Below are positions 975-52,767 of a stretch of DNA of 64,000 nt, one piece after another. The stretch lies in sequence record KJ190157. One strand, given 5' to 3'. The stretch comes from Escherichia phage vB_EcoS_FFH_1. The notes under the pieces were generated by a model, which had not been told where the DNA came from, ran no database searches, and was given only the letters and a program-made list of their open reading frames with translations. Position numbers and translations under genes: made by a program. Every line of letters starts with the position of its first letter. The stretch's first letter is position 1.

Positions 975-1051
975 TGGCGCGACCGATGGGATTTGAACCC
1001 ACATTCTCTCCCGTGACAGGGGAGTACCATTACCAAGCCAGCCCCGGTCGC
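975..1051 (-). tRNA. tRNA-Asp (anticodon GTC), CCA encoded
   Basis: Manual fold: 7 bp acceptor GCGACCG/CGGTCGC, anticodon loop CTGTCAC, T-arm GTGGG-TTCAAAT-CCCAT. Confidence 0.8.
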
Positions 1052-1060
1052 ATAATTCAT

Positions 1061-1246
1061 TTACTCAGCTTTGAGTTTTTCAATAGCTGCATTAAGTTCT
1101 TTAAGAAACTCTTTTCGTACATTAAGACGATTGAGACTTACTAGTATATCGTGTTTAAGTTCTTCGATGTATTTCTTTTCAACTTCAATATTGTTGATAG
1201 TGCTATCACGATGAACTTCTAGCTGCGCAATTACATTCTTGGACAT
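1061..1246 (-). CDS. Hypothetical protein (61 aa)
   Basis: Short ORF between tRNA genes. Confidence 0.35.
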   Translation of the reverse strand: MSKNVIAQLEVHRDSTINNIEVEKKYIEELKHDILVSLNRLNVRKEFLKELNAAIEKLKAE

Positions 1247-1348
1247 GCTTGTTTCCTCAGTTATTAATGAAAATGGTATCTGTGGCTGAATTCGATGTCA
1301 GCAATGATAGCTGGTTGGCTACCGGTTTACTTAACTCTACACAGAATT

Positions 1349-1431
1349 TGGCGGGCCGTGTAGGATTCGAACCTACGTTGTCTTTCGACATGGATTAACA
1401 GTCCACCGCCAAACCGCTTGGCTAACGACCC
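1349..1431 (-). tRNA. tRNA-Asn (anticodon GTT) with an atypical 13 nt variable arm
   Basis: Acceptor GGGTCGT/ACGGCCC, anticodon stem-loop GTGGA-CTGTTAA-TCCAT, T-arm GTAGG-TTCGAAT-CCTAC, CCA encoded; extra hairpin TGTC-GAAA-GACA in the variable region. Confidence 0.55.
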
Positions 1432-1583
1432 TAAATTTATATTGCTGACTAGGATTTTCACCTAGACGGAGTTAGCACCGTAGCGTGTAGCGGCATACCT
1501 CTCCAAACCGTGCCTCATCTTTCAATTACGGAGACAGTGTTCCTACGCGTGCCTGAATTGATTCAACAATTCTTCCAGCAAAT

Positions 1584-1659
1584 TGGACGACCGCATGAGA
1601 TTTGAACTCACATAAAAAGGATTTGCAATCCTTCGCCTAAGCCCTTCAGCCAACGGTCG
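1584..1659 (-). tRNA. tRNA-Cys (anticodon GCA), CCA encoded
   Basis: Acceptor CGACCGT/GCGGTCG, anticodon arm AAGGA-TTGCAAA-TCCTT, T-arm GTGAG-TTCAAAT-CTCAT. Confidence 0.75.
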
Positions 1660-1707
1660 GTTTATCTTGTTCTGTCATGTTGCTTCTCCAGTTCAATTTA
1701 TGTAATT

Positions 1708-1736
1708 ATTATACAGAACTTTTGGAAACTAAGCAA
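1708..1736 (-). promoter_or_regulatory. Conserved early promoter, positioned to drive the downstream tRNA genes
   Basis: Minus strand reads TTGCTT-17 nt-TATAAT (plus aagcaa 1731-1736, attata 1708-1713). Confidence 0.55.
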
Positions 1737-2016
1737 CTACATTTTTTAAGAATTTGATGCCTTTCTTTTTCTTCTTATATTTCCACGTTAATGGATTCTG
1801 TCGATTATGAACGCTTGAGATCTTTGTCTCGTCAAAGTTCTTCAATATCATGTAATCACAGGATAATTGTTCTAGTAGAATGTGATCACCGTCAAAAGCG
1901 TATACATAAGGCTGTTGACTAACACGATAATGATAGACTTTGTTAATTCTACGTTTCAGCGACTTATCAGCGCAGTAAATAAAGAAGTTTTCAGGATGCA
2001 TCAGCAGCTCCTTCAA
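1729..2016 (-). CDS. Hypothetical protein (95 aa, lysine-rich C-terminus)
   Basis: ORF; no recognisable motif. Confidence 0.4.
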   Translation of the reverse strand: MKELLMHPENFFIYCADKSLKRRINKVYHYRVSQQPYVYAFDGDHILLEQLSCDYMILKNFDETKISSVHNRQNPLTWKYKKKKKGIKFLKNVVA

Positions 2017-2018
2017 TT

Positions 2019-2093
2019 TGGTGCACCCTGTTCGTATCGAACGAACCTCTCAAGCTCTTCAGGCAAGCGCTAATCCATCTCAGCTAAAGGTGC
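2019..2093 (-). tRNA. Probable tRNA-Phe (anticodon GAA); anticodon stem imperfect
   Basis: Acceptor GCACCTT/AGGGTGC, loop CTGAAGA, T-arm GTTCG-TTCGATA-CGAAC, CCA encoded; only 3 of 5 anticodon-stem pairs. Confidence 0.5.
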
Positions 2094-2099
2094 AAATTT

Positions 2100-2176
2100 T
2101 GGCAAACCTACTAGGACTCGAACCTAGACCGTACGGTTTTGGAGACCGACATGCTGTCCAGTAACACTCTAGGAAT
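2100..2176 (-). tRNA. Possible tRNA-Trp (anticodon CCA); acceptor stem has two mismatches
   Basis: T-arm CTAGG-TTCGAGT-CCTAG, anticodon loop CTCCAAA, CCA encoded; T-T mismatches in acceptor stem as read. Confidence 0.4.
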
Positions 2177-2184
2177 GCAGAAAT

Positions 2185-2261
2185 TGGCGTCCTGTGCGGG
2201 GATCGAACCCGCAAATCCTACCTTGAAAGGGTAGTGACTTTACCAGTTTGTCTAACAGGAC
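2185..2261 (-). tRNA. tRNA-Glu (anticodon TTC), CCA encoded
   Basis: Perfect acceptor GTCCTGT/ACAGGAC, anticodon arm CTACC-CTTTCAA-GGTAG, T-arm GCGGG-TTCGATC-CCCGC. Confidence 0.8.
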
Positions 2262-2268
2262 TTAAATT

Positions 2269-2359
2269 TGGTGTTGGATGATGGAGTCGAACCACCCGAG
2301 ACCCTTCCGAGTCGGCAGATTTACAGTCTGCTTCGCTACCTCTACGATACTAATCCAAC
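2269..2359 (-). tRNA. tRNA-Tyr (anticodon GTA), long variable arm, CCA encoded
   Basis: Perfect acceptor GTTGGAT/ATCCAAC, anticodon arm GCAGA-CTGTAAA-TCTGC, T-arm GGTGG-TTCGACT-CCATC; 91 nt. Confidence 0.75.
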
Positions 2360-2489
2360 ATATTTAGAAGTATTCAAAAATTCTCATTTAAACACTTTTA
2401 AATATGTTTTCAAATTAGGTAACTATTATACCAAGTTTTAAGGCACTGAGCAAGTCAAATTTTAAAGAACTTGCTCAGTGCTATATTAG

Positions 2490-2765
2490 TTAGTCGAACT
2501 TAGGAGTGACAGTTAAGGAGAACGGAAGTTCGAAAACTTCTTCACCCTCATTACTAACGGTAACTACACGACCTTTAAGTTCAGACATTAAAATATCAAT
2601 ATCAGCTTTTGCATCTGGAGCCATGCCAGCTTCAATACATTTAGCTTTAACCTCCGGTAGAAGATCTACGTTATAGAGATAGAGCCACTCAATCTCACCT
2701 TCCCAGTCTTCCCAGGATTTGCAGATTGCACTTTCAATACCAGTTGCTGCAACACGATTTTGCAT
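2490..2765 (-). CDS. Hypothetical protein (91 aa)
   Basis: ORF; a long inverted-repeat hairpin lies just downstream at 2446-2482. Confidence 0.45.
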   Translation of the reverse strand: MQNRVAATGIESAICKSWEDWEGEIEWLYLYNVDLLPEVKAKCIEAGMAPDAKADIDILMSELKGRVVTVSNEGEEVFELPFSLTVTPKFD

Positions 2766-2855
2766 TCGTTAACTCCTTCATCAATTTATACAACTATTAT
2801 ATCAGAAATTTAAAGCAAAAGGCAAGTACATTTTTAAAAATTCTGTTTGGAGGAG

Positions 2856-3062
2856 CTAAACTCCAGATTCTTCAGCTAAGTCTAGGCTAATAAGAGTTAT
2901 AGCCATAATTGCTGCACCGTGTTCTTTTTCTCCGGTGTTTTTAGCAGAGTCTATAATAGTCTTAATCTGTTCGTAATAGCCTTTTACTTCTTGTTCAATA
3001 CCTGCCTCGGCTATCATGCCTTTAGTCATGATTCGTTGCATAGTAATTTCACGGTTAGCCAT
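2856..3062 (-). CDS. Hypothetical protein (68 aa)
   Basis: ORF. Confidence 0.4.
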   Translation of the reverse strand: MANREITMQRIMTKGMIAEAGIEQEVKGYYEQIKTIIDSAKNTGEKEHGAAIMAITLISLDLAEESGV

Positions 3063-3222
3063 GATGTTTCTCCAGCTTCATTTTTAATAGTTTACAAATG
3101 AAATCAACGTCTTCATCTGTACCTAGATCTCTATCTTCAAGAGTTGCCTTGAAGTTTTTAGTCAATTCCATGAGGATAACTTCTCTAGAACGACGTGTTG
3201 GCGGAGGTGGATGTCTATACAT
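3055..3222 (-). CDS. Hypothetical small protein (55 aa, MYRHPPPPTRR...), below the ORF-track cutoff
   Basis: Hand translation; ATG at 3222-3220 preceded by AAGGAAATAAG; its stop overlaps the start of the next gene. Confidence 0.3.
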   Translation of the reverse strand: MYRHPPPPTRRSREVILMELTKNFKATLEDRDLGTDEDVDFICKLLKMKLEKHHG

Positions 3223-3237
3223 CTTATTTCCTTAGTT

Positions 3238-3314
3238 TGGTAGGGGTGGTGGGATTCGAACCCACAAAACCTGAATTTTAAGTCCAGTACCTATGCCAAT
3301 TCGATTACACCCCC
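3238..3314 (-). tRNA. tRNA with anticodon TAA (Leu by anticodon) but a short class-I variable loop
   Basis: Acceptor GGGGGTG/CACCCCT, anticodon arm CTGGA-CTTAAAA-TTCAG, T-arm GTGGG-TTCGAAT-CCCAC, CCA encoded. Confidence 0.6.
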
Positions 3315-3321
3315 GTGTAGT

Positions 3322-3510
3322 TTAGTCAATTACTTTTGAGGCTTCAAGGTAGTCGATATAGTGTATGTTTTCTACCGTAATCATATAATCTGCCACTTTA
3401 TCCATAGCTTGGGCTTCAGAGGTAGCTCTGGCTAACCTATATCCTTTTTTATATTCATCCGGGTATTCTCTATCTTGGATAAACACAACATAAACTATAT
3501 ATAGATCCAT
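3322..3510 (-). CDS. Hypothetical protein (62 aa)
   Basis: ORF. Confidence 0.4.
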   Translation of the reverse strand: MDLYIVYVVFIQDREYPDEYKKGYRLARATSEAQAMDKVADYMITVENIHYIDYLEASKVID

Positions 3511-3529
3511 TTGTGACCTCTATTTAATT

Positions 3530-3607
3530 TGGTGGCTCCCCGAGGATTCGAACCTACGTACCTTCCGGTTATGAGCCGGGTGCTCATACCATATGAGCTT
3601 GAGAACC
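3530..3607 (-). tRNA. tRNA with anticodon CAT (Met, fMet or Ile2 type); weak T-stem
   Basis: Anticodon loop CTCATAA, D-arm GCTC...GAGC, acceptor GGTTCTC/GGGAGCC with G-U pairs, CCA encoded. Confidence 0.55.
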
Positions 3608-3613
3608 AGAATT

Positions 3614-3702
3614 TGGCGGAAGAAGCGGGAATCGAACCCACAAGGCTATATTTCAAACCGACAGATTAGCAATCTGCTGCAATACCGTTATGCTATTCTT
3701 CC
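3614..3702 (-). tRNA. tRNA-Ser (anticodon GCT), long variable arm, CCA encoded
   Basis: Perfect acceptor GGAAGAA/TTCTTCC, anticodon loop TTGCTAA, T-arm GTGGG-TTCGATT-CCCGC; 89 nt. Confidence 0.75.
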
Positions 3703-3723
3703 GAATTTATAAGATATATTATA

Positions 3724-4245
3724 TTAGAAATTTAGCTTCATAGCAAGAAAATTTTTCAAGTTTTCGGTAGACATCTCATCCACATCTACGGGAGAAACAA
3801 AGCCGTTTAATTTTCTAGCAAATTTTTCACCCGCAGGATCATTGTCCCCAACAGCTACCAATTTAAAAGGTAGTAATTTCAGTTGCTTTAATAACGCTTT
3901 TCCTGGAGAAGAACCCAACATTGCTAGGGCTGGATAACCAGCATTATGTAACGCAACTGCCTTAAATACAGATTCAGCAATCAATACTACTTTTTCATCT
4001 CCATTGAGAGTTTCTAGTCCCCATACACACTGGGTAGTAGAATAAGTAAAGTATTTAGCTTCAAAGGGGCACTTACCATGACCTTTTGGAGCAGAAGGAT
4101 TATAAGTTTGATAGCCCCTCAACATCCCGGAGAAGTCATACAACGGGACTGTTAGCCATCCTTCCGGACTTAACCAGCAATGATATTTATCTGTATCAAA
4201 TCCTCTAGATAAGAGGTGCTGTGTTAGCTCATCAACATTCATATT
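3724..4245 (-). CDS. Toprim-domain protein (DnaG-type fold), about 173 aa
   Basis: Conserved glutamate in LIAESVF and the acidic motif VGDNDPAGE; start taken at the internal ATG (4245) with RBS GAAAGAGGAA, because the longer ORF would overlap the promoter at 4273-4301. Confidence 0.55.
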   Translation of the reverse strand, partial: NMNVDELTQHLLSRGFDTDKYHCWLSPEGWLTVPLYDFSGMLRGYQTYNPSAPKGHGKCPFEAKYFTYSTTQCVWGLETLNGDEKVVLIAESVFKAVALHNAGYPALAMLGSSPGKALLKQLKLLPFKLVAVGDNDPAGEKFARKLNGFVSPVDVDEMSTENLKNFLAMKLNF

Positions 4246-4272
4246 TGGTTCCTCTTTCAAATTTATAGATAT

Positions 4273-4301
4273 ATTATACAGAGAATTTAGCATTCAAGCA
4301 A
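4273..4301 (-). promoter_or_regulatory. Conserved early promoter (TTGCTT-17-TATAAT)
   Basis: Plus attata 4273-4278 and aagcaa 4296-4301. Confidence 0.6.
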
Positions 4302-4417
4302 TCAAATTTTTTAACTTTTTAGAGGAAAATCATAGGGCACTTAAGGATAGCAGATAAGTGGTGAGGACCAAAATTTGTGACCCCACTAAAAATCCTGGGG
4401 CAATTTTTAAAGACCCC

Positions 4418-4446
4418 TTGACATTTTCGCTGGGGTAGTGTAAAGT
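4418..4446 (+). promoter_or_regulatory. Sigma70-type promoter with consensus -35 TTGACA (spacer 17, -10 TAAAGT)
   Basis: ttgacattttcgc at 4418-4430; the same 13-mer recurs at 33016; drives the antisense plus-strand cassette. Confidence 0.45.
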
Positions 4447-4509
4447 ATATGTTATGGATGAGTGATCAAATAGACACACATTTTCTATATACTAGGAGGT
4501 GTCAAAAAA

Positions 4510-5492
4510 TGACAGAAGAAGTAACTAAGAGTCCTGAGACCGTCGCTAGCGTTGCAGCAGAATTGCACCGTCACGAGGAATCAGATAAGAAAAAGTGGGA
4601 GAAGGTCAGAGCCTACGAAGAAAAACATCGTGAACACGATGATAAAGAAGATGATGATGAACATTGTCATAAATATGGAAAACATAAAATGCAAGAACCA
4701 GTAAACGTATTCACTAGTGGCTTCCCTGGCCTACTGGGTGGTTATCCAGCAAACGCAAGTGCTTTCGGTGGTGAAGGTATGGGACTATTCGGAGCTATCC
4801 TAATCGGTGCTCTATTAACAGGCGGATTCGGTGGTTTCGGTGGATTCGGCGGACGTGGTGTAGTTGGTGAAGGTACCGCAGTTGATGCAGTACTTCAGAA
4901 CCAAGATACCGCTAGTATTCTAGCAGCTATTAACACTACTCGTACAGAAGCTAACCAGGGTACTGGAGCTGTTTTAAGCGCAGTTAACAATGGTTTTAGC
5001 CAGACATCCCAAAACCAGAGCCGTGATACTCAGTCTGTACTGACTACGATCTATGGTACAGGTGCTAATCTGTCTAATCAGATCTGTCAGGAAACTCGCA
5101 ACGTTATTCAGGGTCAGTTCGATCTTTCTCGCCAGATTGATCAATCTTTCGCAGCTAATCAGATAGCTCGTGCACAAGATAAGTTTGATTCTGCACAGAT
5201 CGCTTTCCAGCAGACTTTACAAACTAATAACCAGTTTGCCGCTGTTCAGGCTCAGATGTGTGCTAATCAGAACTCTCTGGAACGTCAGATCGCTGAATGT
5301 TGCTGTGAACTTCAGACTGCGATCGCTGGTGTAACTACTGCGCGTATCCAGGATGAGTTAGATGCATGTCGTCTACGTGAAGCAATCGCTGCGGGTAACG
5401 GTGCTAACGGTCAGGTAATTAATCAAATCGCTGTAAGTCTTGGTGCTATAACTCAGACTCTGGCTGGTCTGCAGGCTAAACTGCCGGCTTAA
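4510..5492 (+). CDS. Low-complexity membrane protein: charged N-terminus, one hydrophobic helix followed by GGFGGFGGFGG, then an N/Q/T/S/A-rich C-terminal region
   Basis: Start taken at the ATG after GGAGG (4510); codon usage biased to GGT/GCT/CGT/CTG unlike neighbouring AT-rich genes; opposite strand to flanking genes. Confidence 0.5.
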
Positions 5493-5513
5493 TATTAAGG
5501 GGAGGAGCCCATT

Positions 5514-5930
5514 ATGAGTAAATATGGTTTTGTAAATAACGGACTTAATCAAAGTATGGGCTCCCAGCAGCCCCTGCCTGGTCTGGATAACCCCTACTTA
5601 CAACAATTGCAACAGCGTTTAGCAGAAGCGCAACAGATGCAGCAACAACTCCAGCAAAACCCTGGAAGTGTGAGTCCTATGCAAATGATGCAGCAAATGA
5701 GCGGGCAGTCGCAAATGCCTCAACAAATGCAGCAACAGGTGCCTCAGCAGCAAGTTCAGCAACAAACCCAACAACCGCAGGTTTCTGCGGAAGGACAGGC
5801 AGTACTAGCCCTTTTCGAAGACTTCGCAAAGACAGAGGATGGGAAACAGCTTGTATCACTTATGGGTAAGTTTAATAGCTTCTGCCAAAGCCAAGTTGCA
5901 AAAGCTCAAAATGGTGGTAATAACTCCTAA
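5514..5930 (+). CDS. Glutamine-rich low-complexity protein (138 aa)
   Basis: RBS GGGGAGGAG upstream; roughly 40 percent Q in the central region. Confidence 0.5.
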   Translation: MSKYGFVNNGLNQSMGSQQPLPGLDNPYLQQLQQRLAEAQQMQQQLQQNPGSVSPMQMMQQMSGQSQMPQQMQQQVPQQQVQQQTQQPQVSAEGQAVLALFEDFAKTEDGKQLVSLMGKFNSFCQSQVAKAQNGGNNS

Positions 5931-5939
5931 GGAGAAATT

Positions 5940-6134
5940 ATGTGTTGCAGAAAACCTGTTTCGTGCTGCCCAATGCCTGTAGCACGTTGTTGCTCTCCAG
6001 CAATGTTTACACAAATACCGGCGTTCAATCCCTTTGCCTTTAAGCCTACTCTTATCCTGCCCCCTAGAGTAGATTTTCAGTCAAGATTGGCCTCCCGTAT
6101 GGGTGGTTGCTGTACACCGAGAGTGTGGTTCTGA
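5940..6134 (+). CDS. Small cysteine-rich protein (64 aa; CC pairs)
   Basis: RBS AAGGAGAAA 5 nt upstream of ATG; followed by an intrinsic terminator. Confidence 0.4.
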   Translation: MCCRKPVSCCPMPVARCCSPAMFTQIPAFNPFAFKPTLILPPRVDFQSRLASRMGGCCTPRVWF

Positions 6135-6150
6135 AGAACCAAACAATAAA

Positions 6151-6186
6151 GCCCCTAGTCGAAAGACTTAGGGGCTTTTCTGTATT
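6151..6186 (+). terminator. Intrinsic terminator ending the plus-strand cassette
   Basis: GC hairpin gcccctag...ctaggggc followed by a T-run. Confidence 0.6.
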
Positions 6187-6190
6187 TAAG

Positions 6191-6230
6191 ATAAAAGAAA
6201 AGCCCTGCGCTCTCCAGGGAACGCAGGGCT
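6191..6230 (-). terminator. Intrinsic terminator downstream of the SPFH gene
   Basis: Hairpin agccctgcg...cgcagggct with an A-run on plus (U-run on the minus transcript). Confidence 0.5.
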
Positions 6231-6254
6231 TACTTCAGATGTTACATGCGGATA

Positions 6255-7202
6255 TTATTTATTACGCATATCCATGATCATTTGACCATCGTAGCCAGTA
6301 CCTACCACAGTCTGTGGTACACCACCTTGATATTTCTGAGCACGAATCATTTCGACTTCCAGTTGTTTCCAACGAATCATCTCAGGAGTAATGGTACGTT
6401 GCAGTGCGGCGTTAGCTTCAGCTTCTTTCTTAGCTGCGTACAGTTTAGCATCTGCGTCACGTTCATTAGCGATAGCTTGGTTGTTGCGAGCTTCACGATC
6501 TGCTTCTGCTTGTTTAACTTTTTGCTGTGCTTCCTGTTCAACACGAGCTAATTCAGCTTTAGCAGCATTAACCTGTTCTTCACGAACTTTGGTATTCTGT
6601 ACCTGTTCCATGATTACCGGTGGCAAAGTAATATCCTGAAGGAATACCTGCTTAACTGTGTAACCATATGGGCGTGCATACTCTTCAACTTCCTGTTGAA
6701 TTGCAGTTTGCAATTGAGCCTGAATTTTAGCATCAAACAAATCTTGTGCTTTAGGTACAGACTTACCAAACTCACGAATAGTAGACAGTAATTTTTCAGT
6801 TACATATTTGTCTAACGCTTGATCCTGAGTACCTGCGTTAATACGGTTAATTGGTGCCTTAGAACCATCAAACTGCAACATAACAGTCAGGTCAACAGTG
6901 GATTTAAACTTATCCTGGCTAGGAACCTGAAGTTTATCTAATTTTACAGCAATATCTTTTGTACTAAAAGTGTCGAAAGATGCAAATGGGTTTACAAGAT
7001 GGAAACCTGGTAATACTGGGTTAGGATCTACTTTACCCAGAAATGTTTGGGTTTTAACCGTACCATCAGAAACAATAGTATATGAATTAAAGGCTAGAAT
7101 CAAGCCTGCTAAACCAACTACAGCACCAATACCCCAACGTTTAATAGTACGAATTACTTTCTGCTCAGAAGTCAGTTCTTTCATATTTTTAGTATTAAAC
7201 AT
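6255..7202 (-). CDS. SPFH/band-7 (prohibitin/HflK-HflC-like) membrane protein
   Basis: N-terminal transmembrane helix, SPFH-like core, long coiled-coil A/E/Q/K-rich C-terminus; RBS AAGGAA. Confidence 0.65.
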   Translation of the reverse strand: MFNTKNMKELTSEQKVIRTIKRWGIGAVVGLAGLILAFNSYTIVSDGTVKTQTFLGKVDPNPVLPGFHLVNPFASFDTFSTKDIAVKLDKLQVPSQDKFKSTVDLTVMLQFDGSKAPINRINAGTQDQALDKYVTEKLLSTIREFGKSVPKAQDLFDAKIQAQLQTAIQQEVEEYARPYGYTVKQVFLQDITLPPVIMEQVQNTKVREEQVNAAKAELARVEQEAQQKVKQAEADREARNNQAIANERDADAKLYAAKKEAEANAALQRTITPEMIRWKQLEVEMIRAQKYQGGVPQTVVGTGYDGQMIMDMRNK

Positions 7203-7236
7203 ATATTTCCTTTGTTTTAGTTACAGTTAATAAAAT

Positions 7237-7311
7237 TGGCCGAGGTGACAGGATTCGAACCTGCATAAAGGAATTTAGAAGACTCCTGCCTCTCCCTTAG
7301 ACTACACCCCG
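7237..7311 (-). tRNA. tRNA-Arg (anticodon TCT), CCA encoded
   Basis: Acceptor CGGGGTG/CACCTCG, anticodon arm GGAGT-CTTCTAA-ATTCC, T-arm GCAGG-TTCGAAT-CCTGT. Confidence 0.7.
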
Positions 7312-47754: not shown

Positions 47755-47795
47755 AAAAACCCCAGCGGACAAAATCCGCTGGGGTTTCTTTTTAC
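47755..47795. terminator. Bidirectional intrinsic terminator between the early (plus) and late (minus) modules
   Basis: 10 bp GC stem ccccagcgga/tccgctgggg flanked by an A-run and a T-run. Confidence 0.7.
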
Positions 47796-47874: not shown

Positions 47875-49617
47875 TTAGGAACCATTCGCTTCTTTTAATG
47901 CAGCTAATTCTGCTTCTAGGTTTTCCACCTTTTCCATCAAAGCAAGTATCGCCTCGTGGTGCAGTGCAGCTGCTACACCTGGCGTATTAACAGATTTTAT
48001 GTTATCCAACGTCGAACCGTCGCGCAGAGTAACAGGTGATGACTGAGTTTCAGATACTGCTTCAGGAAAGTCTTTCTCTACATCCTGAGCAATAAATCCA
48101 TACCCAACTGAGCCGTTTGTTTCTAGCACCCATTTAACCCCTTTAATGTTTCGCATCTTAGATAGTGGATCGTTTATACGCTCAATATTACTTTTAATGC
48201 GTTTGTCGGATAAGTTTCTCCATTCTTGACCTTTTGCTATACCATCCGTCCCAAAAAGATAAGATGCAGCTCCTCCGATTCCGTTATAGACATTAAGCTG
48301 TACTCTATCTAACAACGTATTACCGGAGCGAATACCACCAAACATCCAGTTTCCATCGTACCAATCGCCGCTTATAGTGTTTACATAATACCCTTCTGAC
48401 ACATTCGCGTAGTTAATCATTCTGATGGCGTTTCTTTCTATAGCGGCAACTCCAACAGAGTTTAATGGCTGTGCAACGAAGTCTTTTGCTCGTATGTATG
48501 CGTTAACCTGTAGCTCGCCATCAGACCTTAGCGTGCCAATTTGAGTTTCTGCGCTTGGGAAGTACAAAGTCCCAGCTTGATTAAATGACCACTCTTGAAC
48601 CCCGTTTGATATAACTGCACCTTGTTCAGACGTCAATCCATCAATCTTTCCGTAAGATTGCAGATATGCTTGATGCGTAGTAGTTGTGCCAATCTTGTAT
48701 TCTGACTTCACACTACCACCCCTTACAACTGTCCCAGTAGGAGGTTTGACAGCATCAGCGTTTATTACACTCCATGATGTATTTGCCGCAACGAAACCAC
48801 CGGACGCCCGTATTACCCACACCCCGACAAAGTTTCGTGTAAGAATCTCGTCGGTTGATGCTCCGTAAATCGGACTTGACATTGAGGCATTGAAGTCGCA
48901 GGTATTATAACGCCCGGCGAGCGCCGCTGTGCCTGGGGGTATACCGTCTCCTTTTCCTTCCGGAAATACATTATTACTTGCGGTAAAAGAACCGCCTGTC
49001 ATACCTAATACCTGGCCGTAAGTTTGAGCGGAATATGTGGTGAAAAAGCCTGTAATATTAGGCGCAGCAGATTCGAACAGTTGCCCATTTGCACCACTAT
49101 TCCCGCCATCTCCACGGCCATAAAGAGCACGTATTGATCCCTCCTGCACCCCATTCTTATCTGGAACACGAAAAGTTGTTGCTCCGTCACCATTAGAGTA
49201 TTTGCCACGCTGGAATTTATCCGCTAACCATACGGAATCCTCTATAACACCAACCATTTGAGCGTATGCCCAAAGCTCCGGCCAGTCAGCCCTGTTAAGA
49301 AGCTGCCCATCAGAAACTACTTCATAAGGTTGAATATACGCACGGCTATCGCGAAGGTGGAAATCACCAACACCGTAATTCATAACACCATTCATAGTGG
49401 GACCGACTGTACCGGTGTTAATCTTATTCTCTACCCAACGTTTAGTTGCGGCATCATAGTCCCCAACAGGATCTCCCGCAAGAGGGGTGGACCCAATAGG
49501 ACGCACATTTAACCATGCTGCTGCACGGTCTGCAAGATCGGATAAATTGTTGTTTTTATCCATCTTTTCGTCTTTAAGTTTTGTAATATCCTGGGGGATA
49601 TTAGTATAAGTAGTCAT
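47875..49617 (-). CDS. L-shaped tail fibre distal component with C-terminal intramolecular chaperone (self-cleaving S74-like) domain
   Basis: C-terminal region resembles the auto-processing chaperone domain of T5 pb1 and endosialidases as recalled. Confidence 0.65.
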   Translation of the reverse strand: MTTYTNIPQDITKLKDEKMDKNNNLSDLADRAAAWLNVRPIGSTPLAGDPVGDYDAATKRWVENKINTGTVGPTMNGVMNYGVGDFHLRDSRAYIQPYEVVSDGQLLNRADWPELWAYAQMVGVIEDSVWLADKFQRGKYSNGDGATTFRVPDKNGVQEGSIRALYGRGDGGNSGANGQLFESAAPNITGFFTTYSAQTYGQVLGMTGGSFTASNNVFPEGKGDGIPPGTAALAGRYNTCDFNASMSSPIYGASTDEILTRNFVGVWVIRASGGFVAANTSWSVINADAVKPPTGTVVRGGSVKSEYKIGTTTTHQAYLQSYGKIDGLTSEQGAVISNGVQEWSFNQAGTLYFPSAETQIGTLRSDGELQVNAYIRAKDFVAQPLNSVGVAAIERNAIRMINYANVSEGYYVNTISGDWYDGNWMFGGIRSGNTLLDRVQLNVYNGIGGAASYLFGTDGIAKGQEWRNLSDKRIKSNIERINDPLSKMRNIKGVKWVLETNGSVGYGFIAQDVEKDFPEAVSETQSSPVTLRDGSTLDNIKSVNTPGVAAALHHEAILALMEKVENLEAELAALKEANGS

Positions 49618-49627
49618 TAATCACCTC

Positions 49628-49894
49628 TTATGCCCATTTGCGTACACCGGGATTCTCAATAATGAATTGTTCGATGTCTGACAAGTCTATATTATCTCCT
49701 ACTATCCTTATATTTATGTAATAACCTTCTTTACCAATAATAGCAGGGGTTTTACTTTTAGGGTCGTCTACCACAGGGATAAAACCAATTTCATCTATAA
49801 ACACGTTACCGTAGTTTGTCTTAAGCCACCCACTATCAACGACAACATCCAGATAATGTTTTTCATCCTTGAATTGTAAATTAATATCTTTCAC
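49628..49894 (-). CDS. Hypothetical small protein (88 aa) between the two fibre genes
   Basis: ORF. Confidence 0.4.
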   Translation of the reverse strand: MKDINLQFKDEKHYLDVVVDSGWLKTNYGNVFIDEIGFIPVVDDPKSKTPAIIGKEGYYINIRIVGDNIDLSDIEQFIIENPGVRKWA

Positions 49895-52345
49895 TTAAAC
49901 TTTCTCCCGCATTTGACTATCTGTTAATACTCTATTCCATATTCTAAGGTTTCGCACATGACCATATAATTTAGTTGAATCGGAGGGTCTTCCTCCTATC
50001 TCCAGCAAGGAATCCGGAGGTAGCCCTTCCCACGTTGAACCGGAGGATGTTATATTCTTAAGACCATTCAAAAACGATGTTACATCTCCATCTTTTGTAT
50101 GAATGAACCCCCATATAGACGGGACACCTACCCCACTAAATGAAGATCCGTTCGATCCTATGGAGGTTCCAGTTTCTTTATTTAAAAAGTAAACGCTGGG
50201 AACCCTTGTACCTATGACAACTTCGGATACAAAAGATTCACCAGCAGTATTGTAACGGTTGTTATCAATTATCATCGGGTATGTATTATCCAATTGAAAG
50301 CTATCCCAGTTAGTGCTTACCTCAACAAGGAATGAAATGTTCAACCCTGAGAAATTATTTCTTGCGGGTATAGTAACATAATCTAGAGCCCTTGTTGCAG
50401 GAGTGCTTCCCGTAATAATGAAGGAGGATGCACAAAAACCCTTTTCAAATTGTGGAGTACAAAATGATATCGTGTCCCCAACTTGCACAGGTTGATCATT
50501 ATTCCGACAATAATTTACAGATCCAATAGAACTACCTCCACGTTCTACAAATTTACACATAGCTTCAACTTTCAACCATCCGTTGTCTTCTCTATATATT
50601 CTATGTGCTATAGTCCCTCTCCCTTCTACTATAGAAGAAACTTCGCCGGTTTCGCAATTTATGAAAGATCTAGCGCCGAGAATAAGACCCCCATCCTCAC
50701 CTACTAAATAAAATTGTGGGGTGATATAGATATCCAAGTTTGCCTTTACTCGTATAGATAAAGAAACGTATTCATTTTGCTGACAGTTGATTGCATTTAC
50801 TGTTTCACAATAAAATAATGGGGGATACTCACCTTGTGACTTTTCGTTTGCTGTCGCCGTTGCATATGCAAAACCATACTTATCGACATTATAAGTAACA
50901 TCACTACGGTATTTATCTGTATTTAATGAAGCGGGGTCATTACTGAAAGTAATGTGATTTGTCCTCTGGCCCTCAATCAAGAGTCCTTGCTTTTCAAATC
51001 TAGGTTCATCGATATTAGCAATGCAAAATTCACCATGCTTATTTATGTATGTTGCATTTGACGCACGTGAGAAACTAACAACCTTATCAGAAGGCATTGT
51101 AATAACATCTGCACCAACTGTTATTTTCTTATAGCCGGGTGAGTAACCTGCTAGCATATCAAGCGAGTCATTAAATGGAATCCATACGTCAGGGAATGGT
51201 TGAAGATCCGGAGCCCTGTTAGCTGCAATTTCCGCACGGTCTGCTTCTGCTTTTGCACGGTCTGCTTCTGCTTTAGAGCTGTTTGCACTACCAGCAGCAT
51301 TGCTAGCTTGTTGCCCGGCCTCAATAGCACTATTACCAGCTTGTGTAGCAGAAGCAGCAGCTTGGTTTTTTAAAGCTGTTGTATCAGATACCGCGCTATC
51401 CTTAATACCTTGTGTATCCGTTTTTAATTGCTCAACATCTGCTTTTAAAGTTGTTATCTCGGATACCGCGCTATTTTTAATGGCCTGGGTATCAGATTTT
51501 AACTGTTCTACATCCGCTTTTAAAGCTGTTGTCTCTGTTACAGCACTATTTTTAATGGCCTGGGTATCAGATTTTAACTGTTCGACATCTGATTTAAGTC
51601 CTTGAATAGCAGCTACAGATTGGCTGGCAGAAGTTGCAGATCCCGCAGCATTAGTTTCACTAGCCTTAGCTTTTGTTTCCGAGGTTTTTGCATTGGTTTC
51701 AGAGATTTTTGCCGCAGATGCCGATGCAGCAGCTTGCCCAGAAAATATTTCCGCCTCATTCCTAAAACCGCTAGAATCATCCGCTGATTGAGCTGCATTA
51801 GTCTCACTGACCTTTGCGTTACCCTCGCTAAGTTTTGCATCAGCCGCTGATTGAGCTGCATTAGTCTCACTTGCCTTTGCATTAGTCTCACTAATTTTTG
51901 CAGCAGCAGCTGATGCGTCAGCGTTAGTTTCACTAGTCTTTGCATTAGTTTCACTAGTCTTCGCATTAGCTTCACTAGTCTTCGAGTTAGTCTCGGATGT
52001 TTTAGCTGCGGCAGCGGATTCTGCAGACTTATTGGCTGATGCTGCAGACTGAGTAGCAGAAGTAGCTGATTGAGTAGCAGAAGCTTCTGAAGCTCCAGCG
52101 GAAATAGCAGCATCATTTTCAGATTCTTTAGCATTAAGTTCTGAGGTTTTAGCAGCTACTTCAGAATCTTTTGCAGCCGCAGCAGATTTAGCGGCGGCCT
52201 CTATAGAAGATACTAACTCATTAGCAGTAATAGAGCTAATAGAATTTCCAAGAGTTACTGTGTATCTAGGAAATTTACTAGCAGTAGTTTTAGTATCATC
52301 AATATTTAATATTTGTTGTACAATAATCTTAGTAGTTATTGCCAT
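49895..52345 (-). CDS. L-shaped tail fibre proximal component, rich in tandem repeats
   Basis: Coiled-coil repeat block of 25 aa (x3), 7 aa KTSETNA repeats, C-terminal beta-rich domain. Confidence 0.65.
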   Translation of the reverse strand: MAITTKIIVQQILNIDDTKTTASKFPRYTVTLGNSISSITANELVSSIEAAAKSAAAAKDSEVAAKTSELNAKESENDAAISAGASEASATQSATSATQSAASANKSAESAAAAKTSETNSKTSEANAKTSETNAKTSETNADASAAAAKISETNAKASETNAAQSAADAKLSEGNAKVSETNAAQSADDSSGFRNEAEIFSGQAAASASAAKISETNAKTSETKAKASETNAAGSATSASQSVAAIQGLKSDVEQLKSDTQAIKNSAVTETTALKADVEQLKSDTQAIKNSAVSEITTLKADVEQLKTDTQGIKDSAVSDTTALKNQAAASATQAGNSAIEAGQQASNAAGSANSSKAEADRAKAEADRAEIAANRAPDLQPFPDVWIPFNDSLDMLAGYSPGYKKITVGADVITMPSDKVVSFSRASNATYINKHGEFCIANIDEPRFEKQGLLIEGQRTNHITFSNDPASLNTDKYRSDVTYNVDKYGFAYATATANEKSQGEYPPLFYCETVNAINCQQNEYVSLSIRVKANLDIYITPQFYLVGEDGGLILGARSFINCETGEVSSIVEGRGTIAHRIYREDNGWLKVEAMCKFVERGGSSIGSVNYCRNNDQPVQVGDTISFCTPQFEKGFCASSFIITGSTPATRALDYVTIPARNNFSGLNISFLVEVSTNWDSFQLDNTYPMIIDNNRYNTAGESFVSEVVIGTRVPSVYFLNKETGTSIGSNGSSFSGVGVPSIWGFIHTKDGDVTSFLNGLKNITSSGSTWEGLPPDSLLEIGGRPSDSTKLYGHVRNLRIWNRVLTDSQMREKV
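51365..51600. repeat. Roughly 75 nt tandem direct repeats (about 3 copies) inside the proximal fibre gene
   Basis: Repeated taaagctgttgtatcagataccgcgct... units encoding ALKADVEQLKSDTQAIKNSAV. Confidence 0.6.
51640..52000. repeat. 21 nt tandem repeats inside the proximal fibre gene
   Basis: Repeated tttgcattagtttcactagtc-like units. Confidence 0.55.
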
Positions 52346-52767
52346 TATCTAGTTACCCCATCACTGATAAATACTTTACCCTCCATTATACGAAAAGAGC
52401 TAATAGCTGATCCTATGACATCTCGTGTCATAATTATATCATAGTATCCTGCAAAACGTTGGCGAGGGTTATACTTATCTCTCTCTTTGGTAGCTTTTTC
52501 GCCGATATTATCTACCGCCTCTACAGGTAAACTTATAGCTATAGCACCTTGAGCAGCATCAATAATTTTAGTAGTAAAAGATGCCAAAGTTTCCGCGTCC
52601 TCATCAAGCCCGGCCTTTATAGTACCCCTTAGGGAATACCCTGTTAAGTTAACAGGGGTATTTGTAGGTGGATAAGTACTATCATCAACATCTAAGAATT
52701 GCATCATTAGACCATAAGGTACTTTCTCATCTATCACTAAGTCTATAACTCTATTTTCAGTACTCAT
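52345..52767 (-). CDS. Tail collar protein (T5 p132-like by position; 140 aa)
   Basis: Position between the fibre gene and pb4-like gene; naming is from memory of T5 gene order. Confidence 0.5.

Follow-up and report, generated by a model that had tools for sequence, protein, structure and literature searches.

We analysed a stretch of 64,000 nucleotides (nt) from Escherichia phage vB_EcoS_FFH_1 (record KJ190157; the whole stretch is referred to as the window), with a focus on positions 47,875 to 52,345. Here the minus strand carries three head-to-tail open reading frames (ORFs), gene A (49895..52345; 816 amino acids (aa), ATG start), a small ORF (49628..49894; 88 aa, GTG start) and gene B (47875..49617; 580 aa, ATG start). 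By gene order and homology, the region is a lateral (L-shaped) tail-fibre operon of the AKFV33/IrisVonRoten type, arranged ltfC - A - small - B. The product of A, the first fibre protein, is a homolog of LtfA/'ltpA'/Gp22, and that of B is a homolog of 'ltpB'/Gp24, a distal fibre predicted to be of the T-shaped type with two receptor-binding domains (RBDs). Taken as a whole, the data are probably best explained by a lateral fibre that consists of a lectin-tipped A, a small-protein partner and a non-covalently hung distal B. A preliminary description of this DNA had listed the same three separate ORFs, which were recovered here at identical coordinates, and had interpreted them as a repeat-rich proximal and a distal fibre protein. 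The division into a proximal and a distal protein stood up, as it matches Gp22/Gp24 of IrisVonRoten (PMC11990801) and ORF137/ORF135 of AKFV33 (PMC3326045). The view of A as merely a repeat-rich proximal rod did not.

The assignment to a T5-like lateral tail-fibre operon is based on the presence of ltfC and pb4 upstream, on the similarity of the A N-terminus to DT57C LtfA and T5 pb1, and on the identity of the neighbourhood to Tequintavirus genomes. Directly upstream of A is ltfC (52345..52767, minus strand; 140 aa), which encodes a p132-like collar protein holding the fibre on the tail (Pfam LtfC PF23926, E 1.3e-14; also identified as PHROG 'collar tail protein for L-shaped tail fibre attachment'). 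The gene for the straight fibre, pb4, is located further upstream, with all four pb4 domains matched in Pfam (E 1e-38 to 2e-198), and the synteny of the pb3-pb4-ltfC-ltf late operon is that of T5-like genomes. The product of A matched the tail protein family phrog_1419 (E 2.6e-225). Its residues 1-211 matched residues 1-225 of DT57C LtfA (PDB 8hqz_d, E 1.6e-35), and the A N-terminus matched the T5 pb1 profile phrog_24369 (1396 aa) over residues 3-190 with E 1.3e-47. A T5-type L-shaped tail fibre, as proposed in the preliminary description, is therefore supported by LtfC and pb4 as well as by A itself. Over the 24.5-kb neighbourhood, identity to many Tequintavirus genomes was 93-95%, none of the records being identical, and on these grounds the window is assigned to Tequintavirus (T5-like).

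A can be divided into four parts. Residues 1-40 (52226..52345) form an anchor whose N-terminal strands, according to the homology to DT57C LtfA, are predicted to thread into the LtfC collar. In the structure of DT57C obtained by cryo-electron microscopy (cryo-EM), the LtfA helix starts at T40 and forms a three-helix bundle, and the preceding strands are inserted in the LtfC ring (PMC10713586). The anchor is nearly identical across T5-like relatives, while Seuratvirus and lambdoid versions have a phage_tail_N domain in its place. Residues 41-385 (51191..52225) constitute an Ala/Ser-rich shaft (27% Ala, 15% Ser) with 7-aa and 25-aa repeats, a presumed coiled coil that is homologous to the helical bundle of LtfA and differs in length among relatives. 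It is followed by a conserved neck, residues 386-465 (50951..51190; PDVWIPFNDSLDM...EPRFE..GLLIEGQRTN), and by two lectin-like beta-sandwich (jelly-roll) domains at residues 466-816 (49898..50950).

The neck is the most conserved stretch of the C-terminal region of A and holds most of the invariant columns in an alignment of 47 sequences. Its identity was 69-99% to 14 of 15 relatives and 45% in the most divergent locus, whereas that of the following domains fell to about 25%. Between the two allele types described below, the jelly rolls were about 25% identical and the neck 69-81% in most such loci. Jelly rolls that diverge beyond a conserved neck are what one would expect if a receptor-binding tip were carried on a conserved stem. 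In the AlphaFold2 model, the tip consists of two beta-sandwich jelly rolls (predicted local distance difference test score (pLDDT) 70-93). The neck had a pLDDT below 40 in the monomer model, as would be expected of a segment that folds only in a trimer or complex. The first jelly roll matched the NCBIfam head-spike-fibre domain GTA_spike_fiber above its cut-off (residues 456-653, E 1.6e-12). The second matched Pfam Laminin_G_3 with its last 64 residues (748-811) below the cut-off (22.2 vs 27.6 bits, E 1.6e-4), and many homologs of the tip carry a precomputed PF13385 assignment. A Foldseek search with the tip returned fibre chains of the Pseudomonas phages Pa193/E217, laminin LG domains, galectins, pentraxins and botulinum neurotoxin (BoNT) Hc, the galectin, LG and pentraxin matches having a probability of about 1.0 and E values of 1e-6 to 1e-4. 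The corresponding part of IrisVonRoten Gp22 has been described as a 'galectin-like domain' (PMC11990801).

A search with the last ~430 residues of A yielded 2457 homologs, most of which are the C-terminal end of side-tail-fibre (Stf) proteins of E. coli prophages that differ from A in their N-terminal tail-attachment domain. The Stf protein of phage 21 was 36% identical to A over 504 residues, and the tip also terminates a fibre of a P2-like prophage (37% identity) and a short one of a Mu-like prophage. As the neck/lectin unit is the distal end of complete lambdoid, P2-like and Mu-like prophage fibres, A is probably a receptor-binding fibre in its own right. By its domain content it is a full fibre composed of anchor, shaft, neck and lectin-like tip, with residues 466-816 as a probable extra receptor-binding tip. 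The Mu-like fibre, encoded on contig L017 (5592-7282), has 469 residues with a brief coiled coil, the same neck and a single LamG-like domain. It is accompanied by a 93-residue gene product of the small-protein family, the cassette lies between DNA-circulation and baseplate hub genes, and it adds a fifth kind of tail to those in which the tip and small gene occur.

The 88-aa protein had been described as an ORF that separates the two fibre genes. This turned out to be no passive separator: in 59 of 63 IMG/VR loci, a gene of its family starts 0-4 nt after an ORF ending in the neck/lectin region. By contrast, a B-like fibre was present in only 9 of the 25 small-gene loci with more than 2.5 kb of downstream sequence in IMG/VR. 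The adjacency of tip and small gene spans lambdoid, P2-like, Mu-like, T5-like and Queuovirinae contexts. From this distribution, the small protein represents a conserved family that is genetically locked to the lectin tip and not to B. It belongs to phrog_1361 (E 1.2e-28), to which PHROG gives no function; the family comprises 126 clusters at 90% identity. While genome contigs scanned for the small gene yielded one locus only, a profile search of 1.84 billion representatives gave 97 hits of the family, almost all of them free-standing proteins with a length of 85-110 aa. A small number of giant PKD-rich proteins with matches in multiple stretches were considered as natural fusions and rejected, their Pfam results resembling compositional noise. 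All organisms named by the sources are Escherichia, Salmonella or Shigella phages or genomes. No match to the small protein was obtained in Pfam, NCBIfam or the PDB (sequence search of the latter: nothing below E 0.4), and a Foldseek search against BFVD returned only uncharacterised small phage proteins, so that structural neighbours were uninformative. The AlphaFold2 model (pLDDT 90.9) has a small alpha/beta fold with an extended conserved C-terminal tail ending in ...R-x-W-A.

The position of the small gene recalls that of the fibre-assembly genes of other phages. In lambda (Stf + Tfa) and P2 (H + G), the fibre gene is immediately followed by a small gene needed for the fibre tip, the same order as in the window, and the small gene occupies the Tfa/G place in phage 21 and the P2-like prophage and the Tfa position also in the Mu-like prophage. 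The related T5-like phage phiR2-01 has a comparable order of fibre, small gene and S74-fibre (g125-g124(Caudo_TAP)-g123), and here the middle gene g124 between the two fibre genes encodes a true Caudo_TAP protein (E 2.6e-19). The possibility that the 88-aa protein is a Tfa homolog was rejected: in contrast to g124, it had no hidden Markov model (HMM) match to Caudo_TAP (Pfam PF02413) and none in NCBIfam, and its predicted fold is different. A chaperone role is thus suggested by analogy of position. That it serves as a chaperone of B was rejected as well, because each distal fibre brings its own folding helper, B and the other distal proteins having either an S74 domain or a Caudo_TAP gene. Most likely, by analogy, the small protein is an assembly helper of the tip that takes the place of Tfa-type chaperones and may stay bound. 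A role as a chaperone only comes close to an even chance, one as a chaperone that also forms part of a joint is a somewhat weaker candidate, and some other function is doubtful. A literature search for LamG/galectin-type Stf proteins with an accessory protein found nothing specific.

Gene B encodes a member of phrog_6921 (E 2.5e-261), and its residues 16-371 matched residues 528-887 of DT57C LtfA (E 1e-123). At its N-terminus, residues 1-15 (49573..49617) form a short peptide, M-T-T-Y-T-N-I-P-Q-D-I-T-K-L-K, which we refer to as the plug peptide. Residues ~80-262 (48832..49380) correspond to a tail-collar/Gp12-like domain, assigned as RBD1 after PMC11990801, with a weak Pfam Collar match at residues 140-155. 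From residue 29-49 onward, B is homologous to the T-shaped fibres of Kuravirus and Wifcevirus. A variable distal domain, the T5-like RBD2, comprises residues 291-469 (48211..48747) and was 97% identical to that of APCEc03 and ~20% identical to those of NBEco002, AKFV33, ESCO40, SelmaRatti and SP15. The C-terminal residues 470-580 (47878..48210) are a Peptidase_S74 intramolecular chaperone with predicted self-cleavage at Ser470. The HMM search confirmed the chaperone domain, proposed earlier to be self-cleaving (Pfam Peptidase_S74, E 9.3e-12, 45.5 bits vs a cut-off of 22, residues 470-521 of 580), and the Ser-Lys catalytic pair occurs in its S-D-x-R-x-K context as SDKRIK at residues 470-475. 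The S74 motif is likewise present in T5 pb1 and the DT57C Ltf proteins, and how cleavage works has been established for T5 pb1 and endosialidases (summarised in PMC4728585).

Similarity of B to NBEco002, AKFV33, ESCO40, SelmaRatti and SP15 stops abruptly at a recombination breakpoint near 48750. The breakpoint lies at a conserved motif at window positions 48750-48830 (B residues ~263-290, FVGVWVIRASGGFVAANTSWSVI), and judging from the alignments this segment looks like a preferred recombination junction for swapping the module of RBD2 and chaperone.

In 90 loci, two main groups can be distinguished by the ORF that starts 9-16 nt downstream of the small gene. In the first, comprising 47 lambdoid prophage loci, it encodes a ~97-residue membrane protein, and in the second a fibre-like protein starting with M-x-T-x-T-x-I-P-x-D-I-[T/K]-x-L-K. 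These plug-bearing distal proteins occur in five size classes. Those of 227-234, 340-363 and 348 residues all have an S74 chaperone, the class of 330 residues has Gp34/Gp53-like domains and its own downstream Caudo_TAP gene (E 1.3e-27 for that of locus L056), and the class of 557-586 residues is the B type. In a reverse test, IMG/VR was scanned with the DNA pattern of the plug peptide alone. All 79 of 79 loci with enough upstream sequence had a gene of the small family ending 2-6 codons upstream and preceded by the tip domain, and no plug-bearing protein away from the tip and small genes occurred among these 79 motif-selected loci. Sequence comparison did not reveal the plug peptide in DT57C LtfA or LtfB. 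With respect to the first group, phage 21 (locus L004, 5292-5585) and 46 other prophage loci (e.g. L010, L016 and L032) have the ~97-residue protein (MDISPLLHALCAVAAQ...) 12-16 nt after the small gene. It is a predicted membrane protein without a Pfam match and might be a moron such as an exclusion protein.

Comparison of relatives further indicates that tip, small gene and plug peptide are exchanged together. Per-domain identities define two allele types (I and II), in which the tip swaps with the small gene while A residues 1-385 and B residues 26-170 are ~90-100% identical. In T5_ev219 and IrisVonRoten, the lectin domains and the small gene (49628-50958) are replaced as a block with flanks of 81-88% nt identity. 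In B, the stretch up to residue ~22 follows the tip/small allele, whereas there is hardly any variation at residues 26-170. From A residue ~300 through the end of B, the cassette was 86% identical at the nt level to that of Seuratvirus SA126VB, whose A N-terminus differs. Since only the N-terminus of A is lineage-specific and the rest is shared with Seuratvirus, B appears to ride on A rather than on the tail. In phage SelmaRatti, the shaft is 278 residues shorter and B is nonetheless kept; if B docks on A, the retention of B on a nearly shaftless protein places the docking site within A residues ~329-816.

Based on these results, the following assembly can be proposed. A would trimerise and thread its first ~40 residues into the LtfC collar, and residues 41-385 would act as a long, presumably coiled-coil shaft that sets the reach of the fibre. 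The shaft would end in the neck and three copies of the tandem lectin-like jelly-roll unit, a tip that may itself bind sugar. The small protein would be the cognate partner of this neck/lectin tip, which would need it for assembly. B, made separately, would fold by means of its C-terminal S74 chaperone, which is predicted to cut itself off at Ser470, and would bring two further receptor-binding regions. Its 15-residue N-terminal peptide would attach it non-covalently to the joint of A tip and small protein. The assembled fibre would then bind surface polysaccharide, either O-antigen or capsule, in a reversible manner and so bring the phage to its outer-membrane receptor. Binding to O-antigen or capsule is inferred from relatives, for which links between T5 and O8 and IrisVonRoten and O16 (PMC11990801), between DT57C and O22-like/O81 (PMC4728585), and an O157-restricted host range of AKFV33 (PMC3326045) have been reported. 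We tentatively suggest, with some way to go to an even chance, that the neck/lectin tip, the 88-aa protein and the 15-residue peptide constitute a conserved and previously undescribed plug-and-socket joint for interchangeable distal fibres. Such a joint may be used by enterobacterial phages with unrelated tails (T5-like, Queuovirinae and lambdoid), and the 88-aa protein may found a new family of fibre-tip chaperones or connectors unrelated to Tfa.

Several observations weigh against the proposed lectin-tipped fibre and its joint. The protein contacts between A, the small protein and B are inferred, as are the chaperone role, sugar binding and the identity of the receptor. The co-inheritance of plug peptide and small gene could merely reflect the position of the breakpoint, the first conserved stretch being NNLSDLADRAAAW. 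Within an allele type, the identity of the small protein tracks that of the tip only loosely; in SA126VB the tip was 86-98% identical to that of the window and the small protein 77%. Many of the prophage loci counted are closely related, so the counts overstate the number of independent events. The neck and its surroundings were poorly modelled (mean pLDDT 68.8), and the lectin fold is generic, with a Pfam LamG match that stays below the threshold.

Other arrangements of the three proteins have to be considered. The published drawing of IrisVonRoten, which has Gp22 as the proximal fibre (PMC11990801), would fit an in-line fibre of two segments, in which A is a structural rod whose lectin-like end is solely a socket for B, B alone binds receptors, and the small protein acts transiently as a chaperone and is missing from virions. 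The location of the variable, horizontally exchanged RBD modules in B and, by analogy, the Tfa position of the small gene are in line with such a fibre. However, the tip also ends fibres in the 47 lambdoid loci and the one Mu-like locus that are devoid of any distal fibre, and as it is found in phages without a distal fibre, it cannot be only a socket there. In addition, the jelly rolls vary in the manner of an RBD (~25% identity between alleles) while the neck is conserved. We therefore consider the in-line arrangement unlikely. Alternatively, the 88-aa protein could be a structural connector in the virion that caps the A trimer and provides the surface for the N-terminal peptide of B. The linkage of all three, tip, small gene and plug-bearing distal gene, is without exception (79/79) and points in this direction, as do the change of the first ~22 residues of B with the small/tip allele against a constant stretch at 26-170, the conserved extended C-terminal tail of the small protein and, as an annotation only, the label 'tail fiber protein' given to it in SelmaRatti. 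On the other hand, the small gene is kept intact in many loci without a distal fibre, and the core of the plug is near-invariant while the small proteins are at 25-35% identity, which better fits a conserved partner such as the neck. A connector of this kind is a possibility that we take seriously but lean against.

It is highly improbable that A and B are independent of each other and form two separate sets of side fibres, each with its own attachment to the tail. A does look complete by itself, and some phages have several independent receptor-binding proteins (PMC11990801). But B has neither an LtfA-type anchor nor another recognisable attachment domain, only the conserved 15-residue peptide, and the block of A tip, small gene and B moves between T5-like and Seuratvirus tails with only the A N-terminus being lineage-specific. 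Moreover, no plug-bearing protein apart from tip and small genes was present in the sample, and cryo-EM of DT57C saw no second fibre density on the tail core (PMC10713586). Finally, the three ORFs might be a single gene broken by sequencing errors, as the stop of A is followed by an in-frame start of the small ORF and gene A of phage SP15 is itself split within its heptad repeats. The comparative data refuted such a frameshift artefact, the chance of which we regard as practically nil: the same three ORFs, each with a ribosome-binding site of its own, are found again in about 90 loci and in no fewer than 13 phages that were sequenced independently, alleles of the second type show a 4-nt overlap between A and a small gene that is read in another frame, and the small protein is predicted to fold confidently alone (pLDDT 90.9). 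The split of the fibre described earlier is therefore genuine. Weighing these alternatives, we retain the lateral fibre of lectin-tipped A, small-protein partner and non-covalently hung B as the probable arrangement.

The three genes make up a single translationally coupled unit. Directly after the TAA stop of A comes, in the same frame, the GTG start of the small ORF, which has GGGAG 9 nt before it, and GAGGTG is positioned 4 nt ahead of the ATG of B. At the A/small junction (window positions 49892-49900), one changed base would be enough to join A and the small protein into one chain. Alleles of the other type (T5_ev219, IrisVonRoten and phage 21) have a 4-nt overlap of the A and small genes, which lie in different frames.

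The A-small-B layout is annotated in NBEco002, SelmaRatti, AKFV33, ESCO40, APCEc03, SP15, T5_ev219 and IrisVonRoten as well as in Seuratvirus SA126VB. For AKFV33, Niu et al. (2012) described a fibre of two proteins, ORF137 'ltpA' and ORF135 'ltpB', and detected the A homolog ORF137 in virions by mass spectrometry (PMC3326045), and Golomidova et al. (2016) placed this phage among those with two ltf genes (PMC4728585). Humolli et al. (2025) predicted IrisVonRoten Gp24 to be T-shaped with a Gp12-like RBD1, a T5-like RBD2 and an intramolecular chaperone, placed on the proximal fibre Gp22, which has an extra galectin-like domain (PMC11990801). In this paper, the proximal fibre goes by 'Gp23' in the main text but by 'Gp22' in the legend of Fig 12. 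According to the locus tags, bas32_0022 is the 796-aa fibre and bas32_0023 a 92-aa small protein that is not discussed in PMC11990801. The architecture is thus already in the literature, and the window adds one more mosaic allele of a well-sampled family. The only unexplored elements are the 88-aa protein and the plug peptide, which are a property of the whole family and not of the window alone.

AKFV33 (ORF137-136-135), APCEc03, NBEco002 and ESCO40 share with the window the gene order, the three protein families and the flanking genes. APCEc03 aligned over the whole 5.2 kb with 94% nt identity, whereas AKFV33, NBEco002 and ESCO40 differ in the distal half of B (RBD2 and chaperone), which was ~20% identical to that of the window. 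The second lectin domain of A was 63-66% identical to AKFV33, APCEc03, NBEco002 and ESCO40 compared to 86% to a Seuratvirus. Gp22, Gp23 and Gp24 of IrisVonRoten (Bas32) are homologous to A (55% identity; 55-61% when the T5_ev219 homolog is included), the small protein (33%) and B (46%), but their lectin tip, small protein and plug peptide are of the other allele type, and they have two instead of three 25-aa repeats. LtfA and LtfB of DT57C and DT571/2 (Golomidova 2016; Ayala 2023) have the same collar anchor and helical start, A residues 1-188 being 54% identical to LtfA 1-202. They likewise have S74 chaperones and tandem amino-acid repeats of changing copy number, and BLASTP showed the body of B to be homologous to DT57C LtfA 508-1066 (45%) and LtfB 206-533 (57%). 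In DT57C, however, the B-like body is fused in frame to LtfA, and LtfB docks by a 205-residue phiEco32 gp15-like N-domain on a gp14-like region of LtfA (223-471). These docking regions were not matched in the window, A matching LtfA within the first ~205 residues only, and DT57C is in turn without the lectin tip, small gene and plug peptide of the window. Both fibre proteins of the DT57C type end in S74, whereas in the window only B has this domain and A ends LamG-like. T5 pb1 is alike in its N-terminal anchor homology, its LtfC partner and a C-terminal S74 chaperone on the receptor-binding end. It is one chain of 1396 residues, while the window spreads these functions over three genes and has an extra lectin-like tip.

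The 75-nt and 21-nt tandem repeats noted in the preliminary description were confirmed by Tandem Repeats Finder, which reported four arrays: a 75-nt repeat of 3.0 copies (51368..51595; 83% matches, score 302), a repeat with a 63-nt period of 2.7 copies (51776..51947), one with a 21-nt period that encodes heptads of K-T/A-SETNA type (51794..51991), and an exact 21-nt repeat of two copies (51234..51274; 100% matches; KAEADRA KAEADRA). The 75-nt array corresponds to three 25-aa units, LK[A/S]DVEQLK[S/T]DTQxIKxSAV..., at A residues 250-324, and the 7-aa pattern xxSExxA, typically K-T/A-SETNA, was matched 14 times at residues 59-233. All repeats of A fall inside the Ala/Ser-rich segment. The proposed variation in copy number was indeed seen among relatives, with three copies of the 25-aa unit in the window, two in IrisVonRoten, one in SA126VB and none in SelmaRatti, and with 10 and 21 residues missing in frame from the heptad array of AKFV33, whose shaft is 31 residues shorter. 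On this comparison, the repeats are sites of natural length change. In SP15, A is annotated as two overlapping ORFs of 203 and 651 aa (locus L009, 3842-5797 and 5772-6383) that are broken in the heptad array, a break that reflects either a mistake made in sequencing or assembling the repeats or a true frameshift variant.

The fibre operon is closed by a bidirectional intrinsic terminator (47755..47789, both strands), a strong hairpin with a 16-bp stem, 8 GC pairs and a T-run. Downstream, the opposite strand carries dUTPase, flap endonuclease and D13/D14 genes. At the other end of the window, ten tRNA genes (Asp, Asn, Cys, Phe, Trp, Glu, Tyr, Leu, Ser, Arg) are clustered on the minus strand at 975-7311; T5-like genomes usually have such a cluster.

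The types of O-antigen or capsule that a T5-like phage can get through are determined by its lateral fibres, which therefore are a main handle for predicting and re-engineering host range. The interest in a follow-up is general rather than specific to the window, as a small protein and a short peptide are always found with a widespread lectin-type tip. If tip, small protein and peptide form a universal joint, this would provide a simple rule for grafting distal receptor-binding fibres on lambdoid, T5-like and Queuovirinae tails, and it would explain the movement of modules between unrelated phages.

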